A DNA stretch of 64,000 nt, taken from contig PQAE01000003.1 of assembly GCA_003104935.1 (NCBI GenBank), forward strand, positions 9,350 to 73,349, in the 5' to 3' direction. The translations under genes and the position numbers were made by a program. This document shows, one piece after another, positions 38,740 through 54,711 of the stretch (its first letter is position 1; each line of letters starts with the position of its first letter). The notes below the pieces were generated by a model, which made no database searches, was not told the DNA's origin, and worked only from the letters and a program-made list of their open reading frames with translations. Source of the DNA: Parcubacteria group bacterium. GTDB taxonomy: Bacteria; Patescibacteriota; Patescibacteriia; UBA1558; GWA2-36-10.

Positions 38740-40032
38740 ATGAACAAACAGCTACGACGACTGCTTTACCTATCATTTATCCTTATTTTTTCAGTTTTGG
38801 CGCCAATCTTCATCGCCTATTCCTTGGGTTACCGCTATCGCTTTGATACAAATATGGTAGAAAAAAACGGCGCATTTTATATCAAATCCTACCCCGGCGG
38901 CGCCGATATTTACCTGGACGGCCAACCTAGCCGTCACCGCACGCCGGATCAGATTACGGAAATCCGTCCGGGATCTTATCTGGTCACCATCATTAAAGAG
39001 GCCTTTGTGCCCTGGCAAAAAAAATTAAAGGTTTTGCCCGGCGAAACCACTTTTATTCAGGATGTGGTTTTGTTTTTTTCCGATATTAAAAAAAATAGCC
39101 TGGGATCGGGCAGTACTAATTACCTGGTCAACCGGACCAAAAACCAATATGCCTACGTTGATAATAAAAGCTACCAGCTATTTATCACCGATATCGAGCA
39201 GGATAAAAATTATCAGATCTATGATTTTATAAACAATTATCAGTTATTGGACTGGTCGCCTGATAACCAGAAAATACTACTCGGCCTAGCGGGCAAATAT
39301 TATATTTTTGACATCAATCAAAAGAATCTCCAAACTCTATCCCTGCCCATAGCGGACAAAGTCAGTTGGGACAGTAAAAACTCCCGGATTTTGTGGCTCA
39401 GCACAAAGCAAGGCCTGTACACCTATGATCTGGAGGCGGCCCCAGCCGAATCTCTATCGGAGATTAAGCTGAATAAAAAAATTTATGATTTTGCAGTGCA
39501 GGACGAGTATCTTATTATAGAATATAGCCTGGGAGATAAATATTTTTTGGAACAATTGGATAAAAATGATTTACAACCTCTGCAAACCTCCGAAAATATA
39601 ACTCCCGGAAAAATACATTTGCTTTTGGCCGATAGACAAAGGTTTATATTGACCGTCGGGTCTATTCTCTATATCAAAACGCTGGAAAAAGAGGCGCTGA
39701 CCATACCAGTAACCTTAGCCGACATCCATGATGACCGCCTACTCATCTCCAACGGCAATGAAATTATTTTGTACAATTTTAAAGAAGACTGGCAGGATCT
39801 GATCGACCGCTCCACCCAGATTGTTTCTGATTTACTCTGGCATCCCAACGGTAGCTACTTTATCACCGAGATTAACTCTCGCACAAACCTAACCGAAGTA
39901 GACAGCCGTGATAAGCGCAATACCATCAATATTATAGATAACCCTCTGAAAAAATCCTACATTTTTAATAAAAAAGGAGATAAACTTTTTGTGCTCACCC
40001 CGGAGGAAAATTTTTATCTGACGATACAATAA
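38740..40032 (+). CDS. Membrane-anchored PEGA-domain plus beta-propeller-like protein
   Basis: N-terminal TM; PEGA-like segment (FYIKSYPGGADIYLDGQP...RPGSYLVTIIKEAFVPWQKKLKVLPGETTFI); repetitive beta-rich remainder. Confidence 0.55.
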   Translation: MNKQLRRLLYLSFILIFSVLAPIFIAYSLGYRYRFDTNMVEKNGAFYIKSYPGGADIYLDGQPSRHRTPDQITEIRPGSYLVTIIKEAFVPWQKKLKVLPGETTFIQDVVLFFSDIKKNSLGSGSTNYLVNRTKNQYAYVDNKSYQLFITDIEQDKNYQIYDFINNYQLLDWSPDNQKILLGLAGKYYIFDINQKNLQTLSLPIADKVSWDSKNSRILWLSTKQGLYTYDLEAAPAESLSEIKLNKKIYDFAVQDEYLIIEYSLGDKYFLEQLDKNDLQPLQTSENITPGKIHLLLADRQRFILTVGSILYIKTLEKEALTIPVTLADIHDDRLLISNGNEIILYNFKEDWQDLIDRSTQIVSDLLWHPNGSYFITEINSRTNLTEVDSRDKRNTINIIDNPLKKSYIFNKKGDKLFVLTPEENFYLTIQ

Positions 40033-40042
40033 AACAGGTAGT

Positions 40043-40088
40043 GCCGCGGCGCGCCATTCAAGAAAAGTATGGTTAGGCGCGCCGCGGC
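40043..40088 (+). terminator. Perfect 13-bp all-GC inverted repeat (GCCGCGGCGCGCC, 20-nt loop, GGCGCGCCGCGGC) followed by a T-rich tract
   Basis: Lies 11 nt after the stop of the 38740-40032 gene and marks the left edge of the high-GC insert. Confidence 0.45.
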
Positions 40089-40190
40089 TTTAATATTGAC
40101 AAAACTAAATAAATCTGCTAATTTATAGTGTTTGCAATGACCTGGTTGCGACCAGATCAAAATCGTTCCTCACAGAAAGGATATTACTTC

Positions 40191-40691
40191 ATGGGCGCGC
40201 TGTTGAGCAAAAAAGCTGCCAGCATGGCCATTTCCATCATCTCGCCGAGCGTGATCCAGCTGCTCCGCCAATCGATAATTCTTGGCGGAATCTTCAAGCG
40301 AGGACAGCTGCACGTGGTCGTCTTGGATCCCACGTCGAGATGGGAACAAGGGGCAGAGATCATCGACGCTGTCCTGGCCGAGTACACCTTCAACGAGGAC
40401 AACCGGCCACTGGAAGGACCCTATCGCGACATCGCGTTGGGCAAAGCCATGGTGTCCTGGCGCACTGGCCAACCGTCCGGCTGGGTCGCCCAGTTCGCGC
40501 CTCATCTTCTGCTTCCCGGCGACTCCAAGCACCGTGGCTCCTGGGTCACGGACGGTATCGTGACCACCGCCAGCGGCGTGCAAGGCTACTTCGACGAGAT
40601 GGTCGCCAAGTGGCTCGGCGCGGCCTGCAGTGCCCTGAGTCGGCATCAGATGGAAGCCATCATCCTGGACAAGGAACGCGACACAGTCTGA
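40191..40691 (+). CDS. High-GC (about 60%) cargo gene; possibly GlcG/HbpS-like (DUF336) haem-binding family protein
   Basis: AAAGGA RBS 9 nt upstream. Codon third positions are GC-rich, unlike the neighbours. The motif pattern (VVVLDPTS...DIALGKAMVS...PGDSKHRGSWVTDGIVTTASGVQG...) loosely fits DUF336 but this was not searched. All six frames are open here, a signature of high-GC DNA. Confidence 0.55.
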   Translation: MGALLSKKAASMAISIISPSVIQLLRQSIILGGIFKRGQLHVVVLDPTSRWEQGAEIIDAVLAEYTFNEDNRPLEGPYRDIALGKAMVSWRTGQPSGWVAQFAPHLLLPGDSKHRGSWVTDGIVTTASGVQGYFDEMVAKWLGAACSALSRHQMEAIILDKERDTV

Positions 40692-40808
40692 TTGCCACGC
40701 GACCAGACAAAACGGCACCCTAAAGATCTTACAACATGTAAATCAACGGGGTGTCGTTTTCGTTTTCCTAGCTAAATTGAGCATATTTTACTTATCCACA
40801 GCTAACTT

Positions 40809-40838
40809 CTTGACGTTCGGTTTTTGTTCGGTATATAA
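40809..40838 (+). promoter_or_regulatory. lexA promoter (TTGACG, 17-nt spacer, ATATAAT)
   Basis: Immediately followed, at 40851-40885, by copy 2 of the roughly 35-nt motif in the operator position. Confidence 0.45.
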
Positions 40839-40850
40839 TAAAGATATTAG

Positions 40851-40905: not shown

Positions 40906-41502
40906 ATGCCTCACTTAACCAAAAAACAAAAGCAGATACTGGATTTTATTACCCAGTTTATCCAGACAAATGATTATGCTCCTAGCTATCGGGAGATCGC
41001 CGAACACTTTGGCCTATCCTCTACCGCTACTATCCACGAGCATGTCATGGCACTGGAAGATAAGGGACTTATCTCCAGCGGCCACGCCGCCCGTTCTCTG
41101 GAGGTAATCAGCCCGCGCTTTGGCAAGAGCATTGAATTGCCCTTGGTAGGTCTGATCACCGCCGGTGCGCCTATAGAGGCCATTGAAGAACACGAGACAA
41201 TTGCTGTGCCGGAAAACTTGGTTAATGACGATAACAGTTTTGTGCTCAAAGTACGCGGCGAATCTATGATCGAGGAAGGAATACTATCCGGCGACTATGT
41301 CATAGTGGAGCGAAACTATTATCCTAAAAACGGTGATGTGGTTGTAGCTCTCTTAGATAATACCTATGCCACTCTCAAAAAATATTATCGGGAAAATAAC
41401 CGCATCAGACTGCAACCGGCCAATAAAACTATGAAGCCGATCTATGCTAAAAATCCGGCTATACAGGGAGTAGTCAAGGCGATCCTAAGAACTTTTGCCT
41501 AG
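40906..41502 (+). CDS. lexA: LexA repressor (S24 peptidase)
   Basis: N-terminal winged helix; C-terminal VRGESMIEEGILSGDYVIVE with Ser and downstream Lys. Confidence 0.85.
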   Translation: MPHLTKKQKQILDFITQFIQTNDYAPSYREIAEHFGLSSTATIHEHVMALEDKGLISSGHAARSLEVISPRFGKSIELPLVGLITAGAPIEAIEEHETIAVPENLVNDDNSFVLKVRGESMIEEGILSGDYVIVERNYYPKNGDVVVALLDNTYATLKKYYRENNRIRLQPANKTMKPIYAKNPAIQGVVKAILRTFA

Positions 41503-41673
41503 AAATATGTCCACCAAGAGAAAATTTAAAATATGGCTACGTCGATTGCTGGCCTTCCGCGAAGACGATTATCTGCGGAAAAAATATGCCCAATTAAGCA
41601 ATCGTCGCTGGACCCTTATATCTAAAAAACAAGCCTTCAAGATGTTTTAGTAGTACTTAATTGGTCAAGTATA

Positions 41674-42038: not shown

Positions 42039-42047
42039 TCACATTAA

Positions 42048-47251: not shown

Positions 47252-48028
47252 ATGTCCAGCAAGAGTGCGTATAAGCCGGCCGAAATCCGGTCGATCAATT
47301 CCTGGGCCAACCGCAGTATGCGGATGAGCCAAAAGAGAATGACACTCATCGGCATTTTCGGCCTGATCGCACTGCTACTCGGCATGTTCTGCCGGGTGGC
47401 AATCAGTGAAGGAGCTACTCTCCCCGATTCTCTGGAACTGAGGGCTCTGCAGTTGCAGGCCGCTGGAAGAGTTGTCGCGGCAGACAGTCTGCGAAAGGTC
47501 TTTACCGCACAAATCGTTTTGGCGGAGCGCCAAAAAGCAATCCAGGATTCCCTCACTGCCCTTCAGAAAGCCGCTCAGCTGGAGCTGTACCGCCGGCATC
47601 TGGACGCCAAGGTCAAGCTCTGGTCGTCCTGGGATGCCAAAGTCACTCCTCTGCCGATCGATTCGGTGTGGGTCTGGGCCGGCTGCGACTTCGACAAGCT
47701 CAATTGGTTGGCCGCTCGGTATCATATTCAGTACGACATCAAGTCGTCACTGAACGACAATGCGACGCGCATGGCCAATGAGATGAAAGCACGCAAGCAA
47801 TTGCGCACTGAAGTTAGCCGCCAGCTGAGAACCCAGTTGACCGGACTCACCTCGCAGGTGAACAAACTCGAACAGCGCGTGGACGCCTGCGAACAGAACA
47901 TCGCGGCCATTCGAAAAGCCGTGGTGAAAAACGGCTTTGACATCGGAGCCGCCCTCTCCGTCCTGGAGCAGACGGCCGGTGTGGCCTGTGTCAACGCCGC
48001 GCGCGGAAAAGCGCGACAAGATAAGTAG
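47252..48028 (+). CDS. High-GC (about 57%) cargo gene: N-terminally anchored coiled-coil membrane protein of unknown function
   Basis: AAGGAGG RBS 7 nt upstream; one TM (LIGIFGLIALLLGMFCRVAI) then a heptad-rich region; strong terminator downstream; all six frames open, a GC artefact. Confidence 0.6.
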   Translation: MSSKSAYKPAEIRSINSWANRSMRMSQKRMTLIGIFGLIALLLGMFCRVAISEGATLPDSLELRALQLQAAGRVVAADSLRKVFTAQIVLAERQKAIQDSLTALQKAAQLELYRRHLDAKVKLWSSWDAKVTPLPIDSVWVWAGCDFDKLNWLAARYHIQYDIKSSLNDNATRMANEMKARKQLRTEVSRQLRTQLTGLTSQVNKLEQRVDACEQNIAAIRKAVVKNGFDIGAALSVLEQTAGVACVNAARGKARQDK

Positions 48029-48043
48029 TAAGAGGTAACAAAA

Positions 48044-48095
48044 GCCGCCCCGACAAATCGCGTTAGCGATGAAGTCGGGGCGGCTTCTTCAATTT
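48044..48095. terminator. Intrinsic terminator (GCCGCCCCGAC, 19-nt loop, GUCGGGGCGGC, then UUCUUCAAUUU) between convergent genes
   Basis: 11-bp GC stem followed by a T-rich run. Confidence 0.6.
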
Positions 48096-52954: not shown

Positions 52955-53058
52955 ATTTTTTTTTACTACTTAAATCACCCATATTATCTAATATTTCCGT
53001 AAAAAAAGCAACCCCGTCCCCTACACCGTGATGGTATAGGGAAACGGGGTTGCGGCTG

Positions 53059-54711
53059 TCAGGTTCTGCTTCCGATGTACTTGCTGATCCCATCCAGGAA
53101 TCCGGCCGGGAAGGCGACGGTTCCGCCGCTCTCAGCCAAACGCAGGGCGGTCAGTAGACGCATGGCTTCGGCCTTGTCGCCGAGATCCAGACTCTGGTAG
53201 ATGGCTTCTACCTGCCGAACGATGAAATCACCTTCGCCCTTTCCTTGCTCAGCCCGAGCCCGAGCGTACTTGACGGCCGTCTGGATTTTGGTCTCCGCAA
53301 CACGAAGCGCCTTCTGGGCCGCCTCGATGTCGGGTGACTGATTGACGTCCATGATCTGGAAGCGGACCAGGCGCACGCCGGTATGGCGACGGAGATCCTC
53401 AGCCAGATACTGAGGGAAGGTCTCGTAGGTACGCCCTTCCCTGCTCAGATCGACCATGTCGATTTCGGTCAGCAAACTCTGCTGGCGCTCCTCAACTAAC
53501 TGATGGAAGTTGGTGAGACGCGGGTCTTCTGCCGGACCTCCTTCCGGAGCGACGTAAGGTTTGGACGTGATCTCTGTCAGCAACTCCTTGCGGACTTGCT
53601 GTTCGATCTGCGTCTCCCGCTTACGGTTGATGTCGGCCACATTCCCCAAGTAGGGATTTTTGACCTTGGCTTCGTTGTTGGTGAGCTGACGGGTGTATTC
53701 CGTCAGTGCTCCTTCGACATAGCGGGCGATCAGTCCTTGGAACTTGGCATCGTCTGAACGGTCTTCGTCGGCCAGGCGCAAGAAAGGTCTGGGATCGTGA
53801 CGCATGACGGTCAGCTTGTAGGCGATCTGAATCGGCGGTCCAGGTTCGGTGCCGACAGTCGCCTTACCGTTTTCATCTACATCCAGCAGTTCCGGACGGG
53901 TTGGGATGAACTCGGTCTTCAGTGCCGTGCCCTTGGGACCGTTGATTTCCAGCTCCTCGCAGAAGAGCTCGGCGATGTCAAAACCGGGAAACCAACTGGG
54001 AATCAGGATCAGGTTCAAACCCTCATCCATCCAGCGCCTATTGAGCATCAGCCGATTCCACAGCCAGCTGGGCTTGAGGCCCATCTCTCTGCGGATCATC
54101 TGCTCAAAGTAGCGCTCTTCCTCGTTGAGTGCCTCGGACTCCTTCTCATTGGAGTCGGTGTACCGGATCTTGGACAGATCGGGCAAACCATAGCGAGGCT
54201 TCTTGAAGAAGATGACTACCCAACGCTCACGAAGATTAGGGTTGTAGAAACAACTCATCAAGTAACCGACACCGGCTCCCATGATTCCGGGAAGCCATGA
54301 CCAGGCTGAAGTGTGCCAGATCCACCACAACAAAGAGCCGTGGAAAACCAGACATCCAATCAGTCCCGGCCAATGCAAACCGGCCTTGTTCAGATCTTTG
54401 CCGGTGAGAGCGTCAGTCCTAGCGTTCCAGGACTTCGGTACCAGAACGGAAAAGAGCCGCCATAGTCCGAGGCCAGAAACGACCAGTGTCAACAACCACT
54501 GCCACCAAGAAAGATGCCTAAGCACCCCACTGATGTAGATCAGACCGATGATCAACGGGACCAGAATGGTCTGTCCCCAATTGATCTTTTTCGCCTTGAC
54601 CAGATTGCCAGTGGTGATGAAGCCGATGAGCAGAAGTAGCGCGAGTACCGGCCAGTGGTAGTAGTGATTCCAGTACCACATGACCTTATCCCAAAAGAGT
54701 TCGAACGACAT
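53059..54711 (-). CDS. SPFH/band-7 (flotillin/stomatin-like) protein with Trp-rich multi-TM N-terminus; high GC (about 57%)
   Basis: SPFH core (IPSWFPGFDIAELF...IQIAYKLTVMRHDPRPFLRLADE...FQGLIARYVEGALTEY) followed by a coiled coil; AGGAGG SD. Overlapping ORFs in all frames are GC artefacts. Confidence 0.65.
   Translation of the reverse strand: MSFELFWDKVMWYWNHYYHWPVLALLLLIGFITTGNLVKAKKINWGQTILVPLIIGLIYISGVLRHLSWWQWLLTLVVSGLGLWRLFSVLVPKSWNARTDALTGKDLNKAGLHWPGLIGCLVFHGSLLWWIWHTSAWSWLPGIMGAGVGYLMSCFYNPNLRERWVVIFFKKPRYGLPDLSKIRYTDSNEKESEALNEEERYFEQMIRREMGLKPSWLWNRLMLNRRWMDEGLNLILIPSWFPGFDIAELFCEELEINGPKGTALKTEFIPTRPELLDVDENGKATVGTEPGPPIQIAYKLTVMRHDPRPFLRLADEDRSDDAKFQGLIARYVEGALTEYTRQLTNNEAKVKNPYLGNVADINRKRETQIEQQVRKELLTEITSKPYVAPEGGPAEDPRLTNFHQLVEERQQSLLTEIDMVDLSREGRTYETFPQYLAEDLRRHTGVRLVRFQIMDVNQSPDIEAAQKALRVAETKIQTAVKYARARAEQGKGEGDFIVRQVEAIYQSLDLGDKAEAMRLLTALRLAESGGTVAFPAGFLDGISKYIGSRT

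Follow-up and report, generated by a model that had tools for sequence, protein, structure and literature searches.

A probably acquired GC-rich gene for a predicted DUF336-fold protein in a variable slot upstream of lexA in a member of the Parcubacteria

EfgA, a DUF336 protein, is the formaldehyde sensor of Methylorubrum extorquens, and its residues K57, S114 and D121 form a formaldehyde-binding pocket that is largely conserved across DUF336 (PMC8153426). Other proteins of this group, covered by PF03928, bind haem or corrinoids: HbpS, located outside the cytoplasmic membrane, the C-terminal domain of PduO, which is fused to an adenosyltransferase, and GlcG, the last two being encoded in pdu and glc operons, respectively. 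At the level of genome organization, the closest described systems are the genomic islets found at permissive intergenic hot spots, where conserved core genes flank a site that exists as empty and occupied alleles and whose cargo is unrelated and compositionally atypical. Acquired DNA is more often AT-richer than its host.

Here, we analysed a window of 64 kb (the whole stretch of DNA under study, 44% GC) from a metagenome-assembled genome of the Parcubacteria (CPR). An ORF named 'hypothetical protein C3F02_01070' by NCBI lies directly upstream of lexA in this window, at the location and with the ∼60% GC that an initial annotation had reported for it. The GC content of the ORF is 0.611, with 0.61, 0.45 and 0.78 at the first, second and third codon positions, vs a GC3 of 0.48-0.50 in the flanking PEGA and lexA genes, and its GC3 stands 12.9 sd above that of eight neighbouring ORFs. 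GC climbs at the start codon and drops within ∼30 nt past the stop, and the 5' leader (40089-40190) has 32% GC. The features of the locus are as follows:

38740..40032, + strand, PEGA-domain gene (Pfam PF08308), conserved left backbone of the slot
40043..40088, + strand, GC-only 13-bp perfect stem with a 20-nt loop, then TTTAATATT, read as the intrinsic terminator of the PEGA gene
40096..40124, + strand, weak, putative promoter-like site TTGACA-17-TAATTT, read from sequence
40142..40155, no strand, imperfect palindrome CTGGT-TGCG-ACCAG (6/7 symmetric pairs, 5-bp arms around TGCG)
40175..40181, + strand, Shine-Dalgarno-like GAAAGGA, 9 nt 5' of the ATG of the ORF, read from sequence
40191..40691, + strand, ORF of a predicted DUF336/HbpS-like protein, a divergent superfamily member (166 aa, GC 61%, GC3 78%)
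40705..40765, + strand, long hairpin with an A-tract and a T-tract, ACAAAACGGCACCC...GGGTGTCGTTTTCGTTTT, likely terminator of the ORF from its fold
40792..40839, + strand, conserved right backbone composed of TTATCCACA (DnaA-box consensus), N9 and the lexA promoter TTGACG-18-TATAAT, from sister contigs and promoter scan
40906..41502, + strand, lexA (Pfam PF01726 and PF00717)

The ATG start of the ORF matches the N-termini of its homologs, and the hairpin downstream of it (-28.6 kcal/mol, z = -4.2) is likely its terminator. Two proposed regulatory elements did not stand up. A promoter had been placed ahead of the ribosome-binding site, and the TTGACA-17-TAATTT site is not called by a consensus promoter scan. 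The 14-bp palindrome, suggested earlier to be an operator, pairs at only six of its seven positions; the window holds 130 14-mers of the same symmetry (∼0.2 per 100 nt) and the region folds no better than its shuffles (z = +0.73). It is thus at chance level, with no sign of an operator role. We also discarded a minus-strand ORF of 182 aa (40170-40718), antisense to the 166-aa ORF, as a shadow ORF of the GC-rich gene; antisense ORFs like it recur in 10 homolog loci.

Scans of the 166-aa protein with Pfam, NCBIfam, PHROGs and PADLOC gave no match, and for Pfam and NCBIfam none even at E <= 1. A word-indexed search of 5.8 billion clusters matched the protein only to itself, an exact-sequence look-up among contigs gave no match, and a scan of viral contigs yielded no relatives. 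An exhaustive HMMER search retrieved 456 cluster representatives at E <= 1e-3, 138 of them at E <= 1e-10. The closest relatives share 41-46% identity with the query, and none exceeds ∼46% among the roughly 15 billion proteins searched. Nearly all family members are single-domain proteins of 150-185 aa, and all the named ones are called 'hypothetical protein' and lack a Pfam domain. A genome scan biased towards the family motifs had given the impression that the family is restricted to CPR; this was rejected, since the profile search found members in Burkholderiales, Poseidonibacter and Desulfuromusa besides Patescibacteria. In a rough neighbour-joining tree, the window protein falls in a part dominated by CPR sequences, apart from the Burkholderiales clade.

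An alignment of 80 family members reveals three motifs, KR..LH.VVLDP, IA..KA..SWRTG and GD..Y.GS....G.IVA.SGVQ..FDEM.A. D135 is invariant across the 80 sequences, and R37, V43, A82, K85, P104, D111, G116, S128 and G129 are conserved in at least 90% of them. Since the window protein keeps every near-invariant residue of the family, the acquired gene looks intact and functional. The same searches brought up P0082, a protein of 3750 aa that matches query residues 64-104 in 24 separate stretches; it appears to be a giant protein that repeats a segment similar to the IA..KA..SWRTG region.

The initial annotation had noted a loose resemblance of this protein to the DUF336 (HbpS/GlcG) pattern. The window protein did not match the PF03928 profile even at E <= 1, and so did not reach its gathering score, whereas weak matches to this profile occur in 9 of the 80 family members (best E = 0.0039). 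When searched against the sequences of the PDB, the family profile retrieved no DUF336 chain at E <= 10 and only chance-level matches, as did phmmer with the 166-aa protein. The resemblance is found in the predicted structure. An AlphaFold2 model built on the 80-sequence alignment reached a pLDDT of 95.3 and a pTM of 0.90, vs a pLDDT of only 42 for a single-sequence model. In a Foldseek search of the PDB with this model, DUF336 proteins exclusively occupied the top 16 places (probability 0.99-1.00, E = 2e-4 to 2e-2), and the matches below them had probabilities <0.1. These proteins include NahX (9jth), EfgA (6bws), DESPIG_02683 (4nkp), ORFY (2a2l), HbpS (3fpv and 4bmw), Ybr137w (4clc) and PduO-C (5cx7), with target-normalized TM scores of 0.52-0.65, or 0.42 for Ybr137w. 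According to this model, the 166-aa protein is a relative of the DUF336/HbpS/GlcG superfamily at the level of fold; judged by its sequence, it is outside PF03928 as that family now stands.

For a comparison at the sequence level, we assembled a small DUF336 reference alignment from E. coli GlcG and the PDB chains that it retrieved (five reference sequences). With hhalign, the family and reference profiles are collinear over 117 columns, with weak statistics (E = 0.0028, probability 11%). In this weak alignment, the invariant or near-invariant K, S and D of the references (GlcG, EfgA, HbpS, ORFY and 4nkp) are matched by K85, S128 and D135, which correspond to K57, S114 and D121 of EfgA with an identical Ser-x6-Asp spacing. 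The GG-x-P motif that precedes the C-terminal beta-hairpin, with G97, G98 and P100 invariant in the five references, is replaced in the window protein by G116-S117 with no proline. The sequence-level case for DUF336 membership is weak. Because the Lys...Ser-x6-Asp pocket residues are kept, the protein would most likely form oligomers and bind or sense a small molecule, whose class may be aldehyde, tetrapyrrole or other. The gene would encode a cytoplasmic protein of ∼18 kDa with a DUF336 (HbpS/GlcG/EfgA/PduO-C) fold, drawn from a large unannotated family that lies outside Pfam.

EfgA is one of the closest described systems. Its fold is shared with the model of the 166-aa protein (Foldseek probability 1.0), with TM scores of 0.43-0.51 normalized on the query and 0.52-0.61 on the target, and both proteins are cytoplasmic, single-domain and similar in size. 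However, they are only ∼19% identical, the canonical GG-x-P of DUF336 stands against G-S without the proline, and the window protein carries ∼25-30 extra residues that form a longer N-terminal helix and an insert at ∼46-60. Moreover, its host is not a methylotroph, unlike that of EfgA. The alpha/beta fold is likewise shared with the haem- and corrinoid-binding HbpS, PduO C-terminal domain and GlcG (3fpv, 4bmw, 5cx7 and 2a2l). In contrast to HbpS, the 166-aa protein has no signal peptide; unlike PduO, it is unfused, and its gene lies in no glc or pdu operon. A family of several hundred clusters, labelled 'hypothetical protein' everywhere and lying outside Pfam, can thus be placed, according to the model, in a DUF336/HbpS-like fold with an EfgA-type pocket, and this assignment of fold and pocket provides a testable functional lead for a gene that recurs in CPR/Patescibacteria genomes.

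Sister genomes were compared for an empty site upstream of lexA, as the initial annotation had proposed. Orthologs of the PEGA gene number 100, at 40-74% identity, and the gene order S41 protease-MurA-PEGA-(slot)-lexA-L27-FtsX-FtsE is kept in sister Parcubacteria. The right edge of the variable region is marked in the window by the block at 40792-40839. Upstream of lexA, 5 distinct sister contigs carry TTATCCACA-N9-TTGAC[GA]TTCGGTTTTTGTTCGGTATATAAT in identical form. The PEGA proteins of these contigs share only ∼52-56% identity with that of the window. Used as a search pattern, the strict form of this block recovered 19 metagenome contigs. The slot is empty in five distinct relatives (L040/L041, L058, L059, L061 and L063), where 44-90 nt separate the PEGA stop from the lexA block and consist of a terminator hairpin with a T-run and an AT-rich spacer. 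In ten other distinct contigs it is occupied and measures 483-2705 nt, compared with 759 nt in the window. The cargo found elsewhere is unrelated: small ORFs annotated without a function, an HD-domain protein, a HAD hydrolase, a Vut_1 transporter, a phosphoribosyltransferase and coiled-coil proteins. Homology between the cargo of different slots is limited to small minus-strand ORFs of L032, L037 and L039, which are related to each other. Occupied slots exceed the GC content of their own contig by 6-11 points in 8 of the 11 distinct ones, the window included, and one cargo ORF of L030 has a GC3 of 0.78. The DUF336-like gene occurs in the slot of none of the ∼20 syntenic relatives sampled, so that the same gene at the same locus was not found outside the window, and we found no integrase or transposase in the window slot or in the cargo examined in the other slots.

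In its conserved flanking core genes, its empty and occupied alleles and its unrelated, compositionally atypical cargo, the PEGA-lexA slot resembles a genomic islet. However, it has no tRNA, integrase or repeat signature, its cargo is GC-richer than the host, unlike most acquired DNA, and, in contrast to typical islets, it is bordered by a terminator on one side and a DnaA-box/lexA promoter block on the other. This syntenic block varies at a second position: L032 (7784-8605), L037 (7217-8038) and L039 (6873-7694) have, between lexA and L27, a radical-SAM gene similar to spore photoproduct lyase, which is absent in the window and L040.

The 13-bp repeat of G and C only, taken earlier for the left boundary of the unit, is indeed perfect and encloses a 20-nt loop, its arms GCCGCGGCGCGCC / GGCGCGCCGCGGC lying at 40043-40055 and 40076-40088. 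Only two perfect 13-bp stems are present in the window (the other, at 48042, has 77% GC), vs a mean of 0.27 stems of at least 13 bp in block shuffles. As RNA, the hairpin has a free energy of -32.3 kcal/mol (z = -4.7). However, it does not mark the boundary of the unit, since it begins 10 nt past the PEGA stop, in a position where relatives have a terminator hairpin at empty and occupied sites alike. A hairpin directly follows the PEGA stop, with clear T-runs, in the five relatives with an empty slot, and is also present in the four occupied or truncated relatives examined (L029, L030, L050 and L062). These hairpins share the position and have unrelated sequences, as in the following examples:

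L040, AAAAGCAGTG-ttaa-CACTGCTTTTTT
L029, CCCCCTT-gata-AAGGGGG
L050, CAGGCTCGCCAAT-tg-ATTGGCGAGCCTTTTTG

Long GC-rich hairpins also follow the two other GC-rich genes of the window (48042-48086 and 53008-53053; -37.9 and -37.6 kcal/mol), and L27 is followed, at 42046, by a terminator stem of the more ordinary, AT-flanked kind. A consensus terminator scan does not call the hairpin at 40043-40088, because its tail UUUAAUAUU, in which the T-tract is interrupted (TTTAATATT), and its 20-nt loop are atypical for an intrinsic terminator. The hairpin has no second copy in the window and no partner arm at the right end of the unit, where the search returned only a partial match with 2 mismatches inside the ORF; no upstream hairpin associated with the family was found at the homolog loci of 28 other genomes. 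The best reading of the GC inverted repeat is therefore the intrinsic terminator of the PEGA gene and not the end of an element. As a rho-independent terminator, it would insulate the acquired gene from PEGA.

We then considered the genomic surroundings of the homologs in these 28 genomes (L001-L028). Neither lexA nor PEGA nor any other conserved neighbour is found at the 28 loci. A functional tie of the DUF336-like gene to the SOS response or lexA was thus rejected, the gene being absent also from the other lexA slots. Of 26 loci that could be evaluated, 12 carry a homolog whose GC3 exceeds that of neighbouring ORFs by z > 2, and a single locus deviates strongly in the negative direction. This one-sided deviation suggests that a GC-rich reservoir may feed repeated transfers into lower-GC CPR genomes. 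The only match of the genome scan not labelled CPR, L014 (OZ246397.1, 'uncultured Gammaproteobacteria'), is a chromosome of 615 kb with 35% GC, a very small size that suggests a mislabelled organism or a reduced symbiont.

Because the slot is empty or otherwise filled in the relatives and holds this gene in none of them, the gene appears to have been acquired in this lineage at a variable site. We give a probability of about 0.75 to ordinary gene gain, in which a single horizontally acquired gene entered a permissive variable slot next to the PEGA terminator. The slot would lie between this terminator and the conserved DnaA-box/lexA promoter block, and the gene would have brought its own Shine-Dalgarno sequence and terminator hairpin. 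Its GC3 of 78% would point to a GC-rich donor, probably another CPR member; the direction and date of the transfer are suggested by composition. Since neither a recombinase nor terminal repeats are present, the likeliest route would be uptake of DNA and its integration, by illegitimate or short-homology recombination, at a position where an insertion is harmless. One could argue, instead, for an ancestral gene that the relatives have lost from this locus, with gene-specific selection keeping its GC high. In 24 of 28 genomes the homolog does exceed its flanks in GC content, the difference reaching at least 5 points in 17 of the 28, and the deviation is one-sided. However, the homologs share no common neighbourhood, their composition equals that of the host in mid-GC genomes (L002, L009, L015 and L016), and GC1, GC2 and GC3 are all shifted in the window gene, as expected of a gene that evolved in a genome of ∼60% GC. 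Together with the absence of the gene from the slot in ∼20 of ∼20 syntenic relatives, these observations make an ancestral origin improbable. An assembly or binning artefact, in which a GC-rich fragment of another organism was joined into the contig, might be suspected for a metagenome-assembled genome whose composition shifts sharply at the ORF. It is hardly credible here, since the segment comprises a full ORF together with a Shine-Dalgarno sequence and a terminator of its own, the flanking genes are adjacent or near-adjacent in many relatives, gene order is conserved over several kb on either side (S41 protease gene through FtsE), and independent assemblies carry other GC-rich cargo in the same slot.

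The initial annotation had also placed the gene at a typical insertion site of mobile cargo. The variable slot and the foreign composition agree with this view, whereas no transposase, integrase or terminal inverted repeats were found. Target-site duplications, looked for at ∼40040 and 40725, are not clear either, and the only repeat flanking the ORF is the following:

40148..40162, + strand, left direct-repeat copy GCGACCAGA[T]CAAAA, marginal
40699..40712, + strand, right direct-repeat copy GCGACCAGACAAAA, overlapping the 5' arm of the terminator of the ORF

The two copies agree at 14 of 15 nt, with p ∼0.01 against shuffled flanks in a post-hoc test, which keeps a site-specific event conceivable. 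If the unit were a discrete mobile cassette (MITE, IS or integron cassette) inserted site-specifically or by transposition upstream of lexA, its ends would be the GC inverted repeat, the GCGACCAGA[T]CAAAA direct repeats or both. Such a cassette would fit the different cargo of the slot among genomes and its usual GC-richness relative to the host. However, the two arms of the inverted repeat are both on the left side, where they pair as one hairpin, with no match at the right end; this repeat is single-copy in the window and has no similar hairpin beside the homologs in the 28 other genomes. The surveyed slots hold no integrase or transposase, and the right copy of the direct repeat is merely part of the terminator stem. 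The direct-repeat sequence is absent from the empty sites of the relatives, which are too diverged from the window to decide the matter. We thus regard a mobile cassette as unlikely, and ordinary gain of a single gene remains our preferred reading. More speculatively, the point where the PEGA terminator meets the DnaA-box/lexA block might be an actively targeted capture site in Parcubacteria that repeatedly takes up single, promoter-proximal, GC-rich genes with no linked recombinase; the DUF336-like family, GC-richer than its host in most of the genomes sampled, might be one of several genes that circulate among CPR in this way and might be an EfgA-like sensor of stress by aldehydes or other small molecules, a proposal that we hold to be doubtful.

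Under ordinary gene gain, the mechanism appears to hold nothing unusual, and neither the family placement nor the slot changes current understanding: the 166-aa protein is new and divergent within a known fold, and the gene-gain site is an ordinary one. The PEGA-lexA slot nonetheless documents one concrete position at which genes have been gained and lost, filled in some genomes and empty in others, in Parcubacteria chromosomes that are streamlined and syntenic elsewhere. It may be of use to work on horizontal transfer in ultra-small bacteria.

Two further genes of the window are GC-rich, with a GC3 of 0.70 each vs ∼0.48 in the host: 47252-48028 (+), which encodes a coiled-coil protein of 258 aa, and 53059-54711 (-), which encodes a protein of 550 aa without a Pfam match. 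Both are probably further acquired genes.

The SOS network of Patescibacteria has reportedly been studied by Sanchez-Osuna et al., in 2017. The lexA promoter of the window (40810-40839) is near-consensus and contains GTTC-N7-GTTC (40815-40829), a direct repeat, GTTCGGTTTTTGTTC, that lies between the -35 and -10 elements and is the only one in the window. The alphaproteobacterial LexA box takes this form (as cited in PMC8565304), and the copy upstream of lexA is the likely SOS box of these Parcubacteria. The DnaA-box consensus TTATCCACA, situated 9 nt upstream of the lexA -35 element, is the sole perfect copy in the 64-kb window. At the other end of lexA, a small basic ORF of 51 aa (41495-41650, +; ...KFKIWLRRLLAFREDDYLRKKYAQ...) overlaps the stop codon. 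Counterparts lie directly 3' of lexA in L032, L037 and L039 (47 aa), and a shorter ORF of 33 aa occupies the same position in L031; the 51-aa ORF may thus encode a conserved small protein co-transcribed with lexA.
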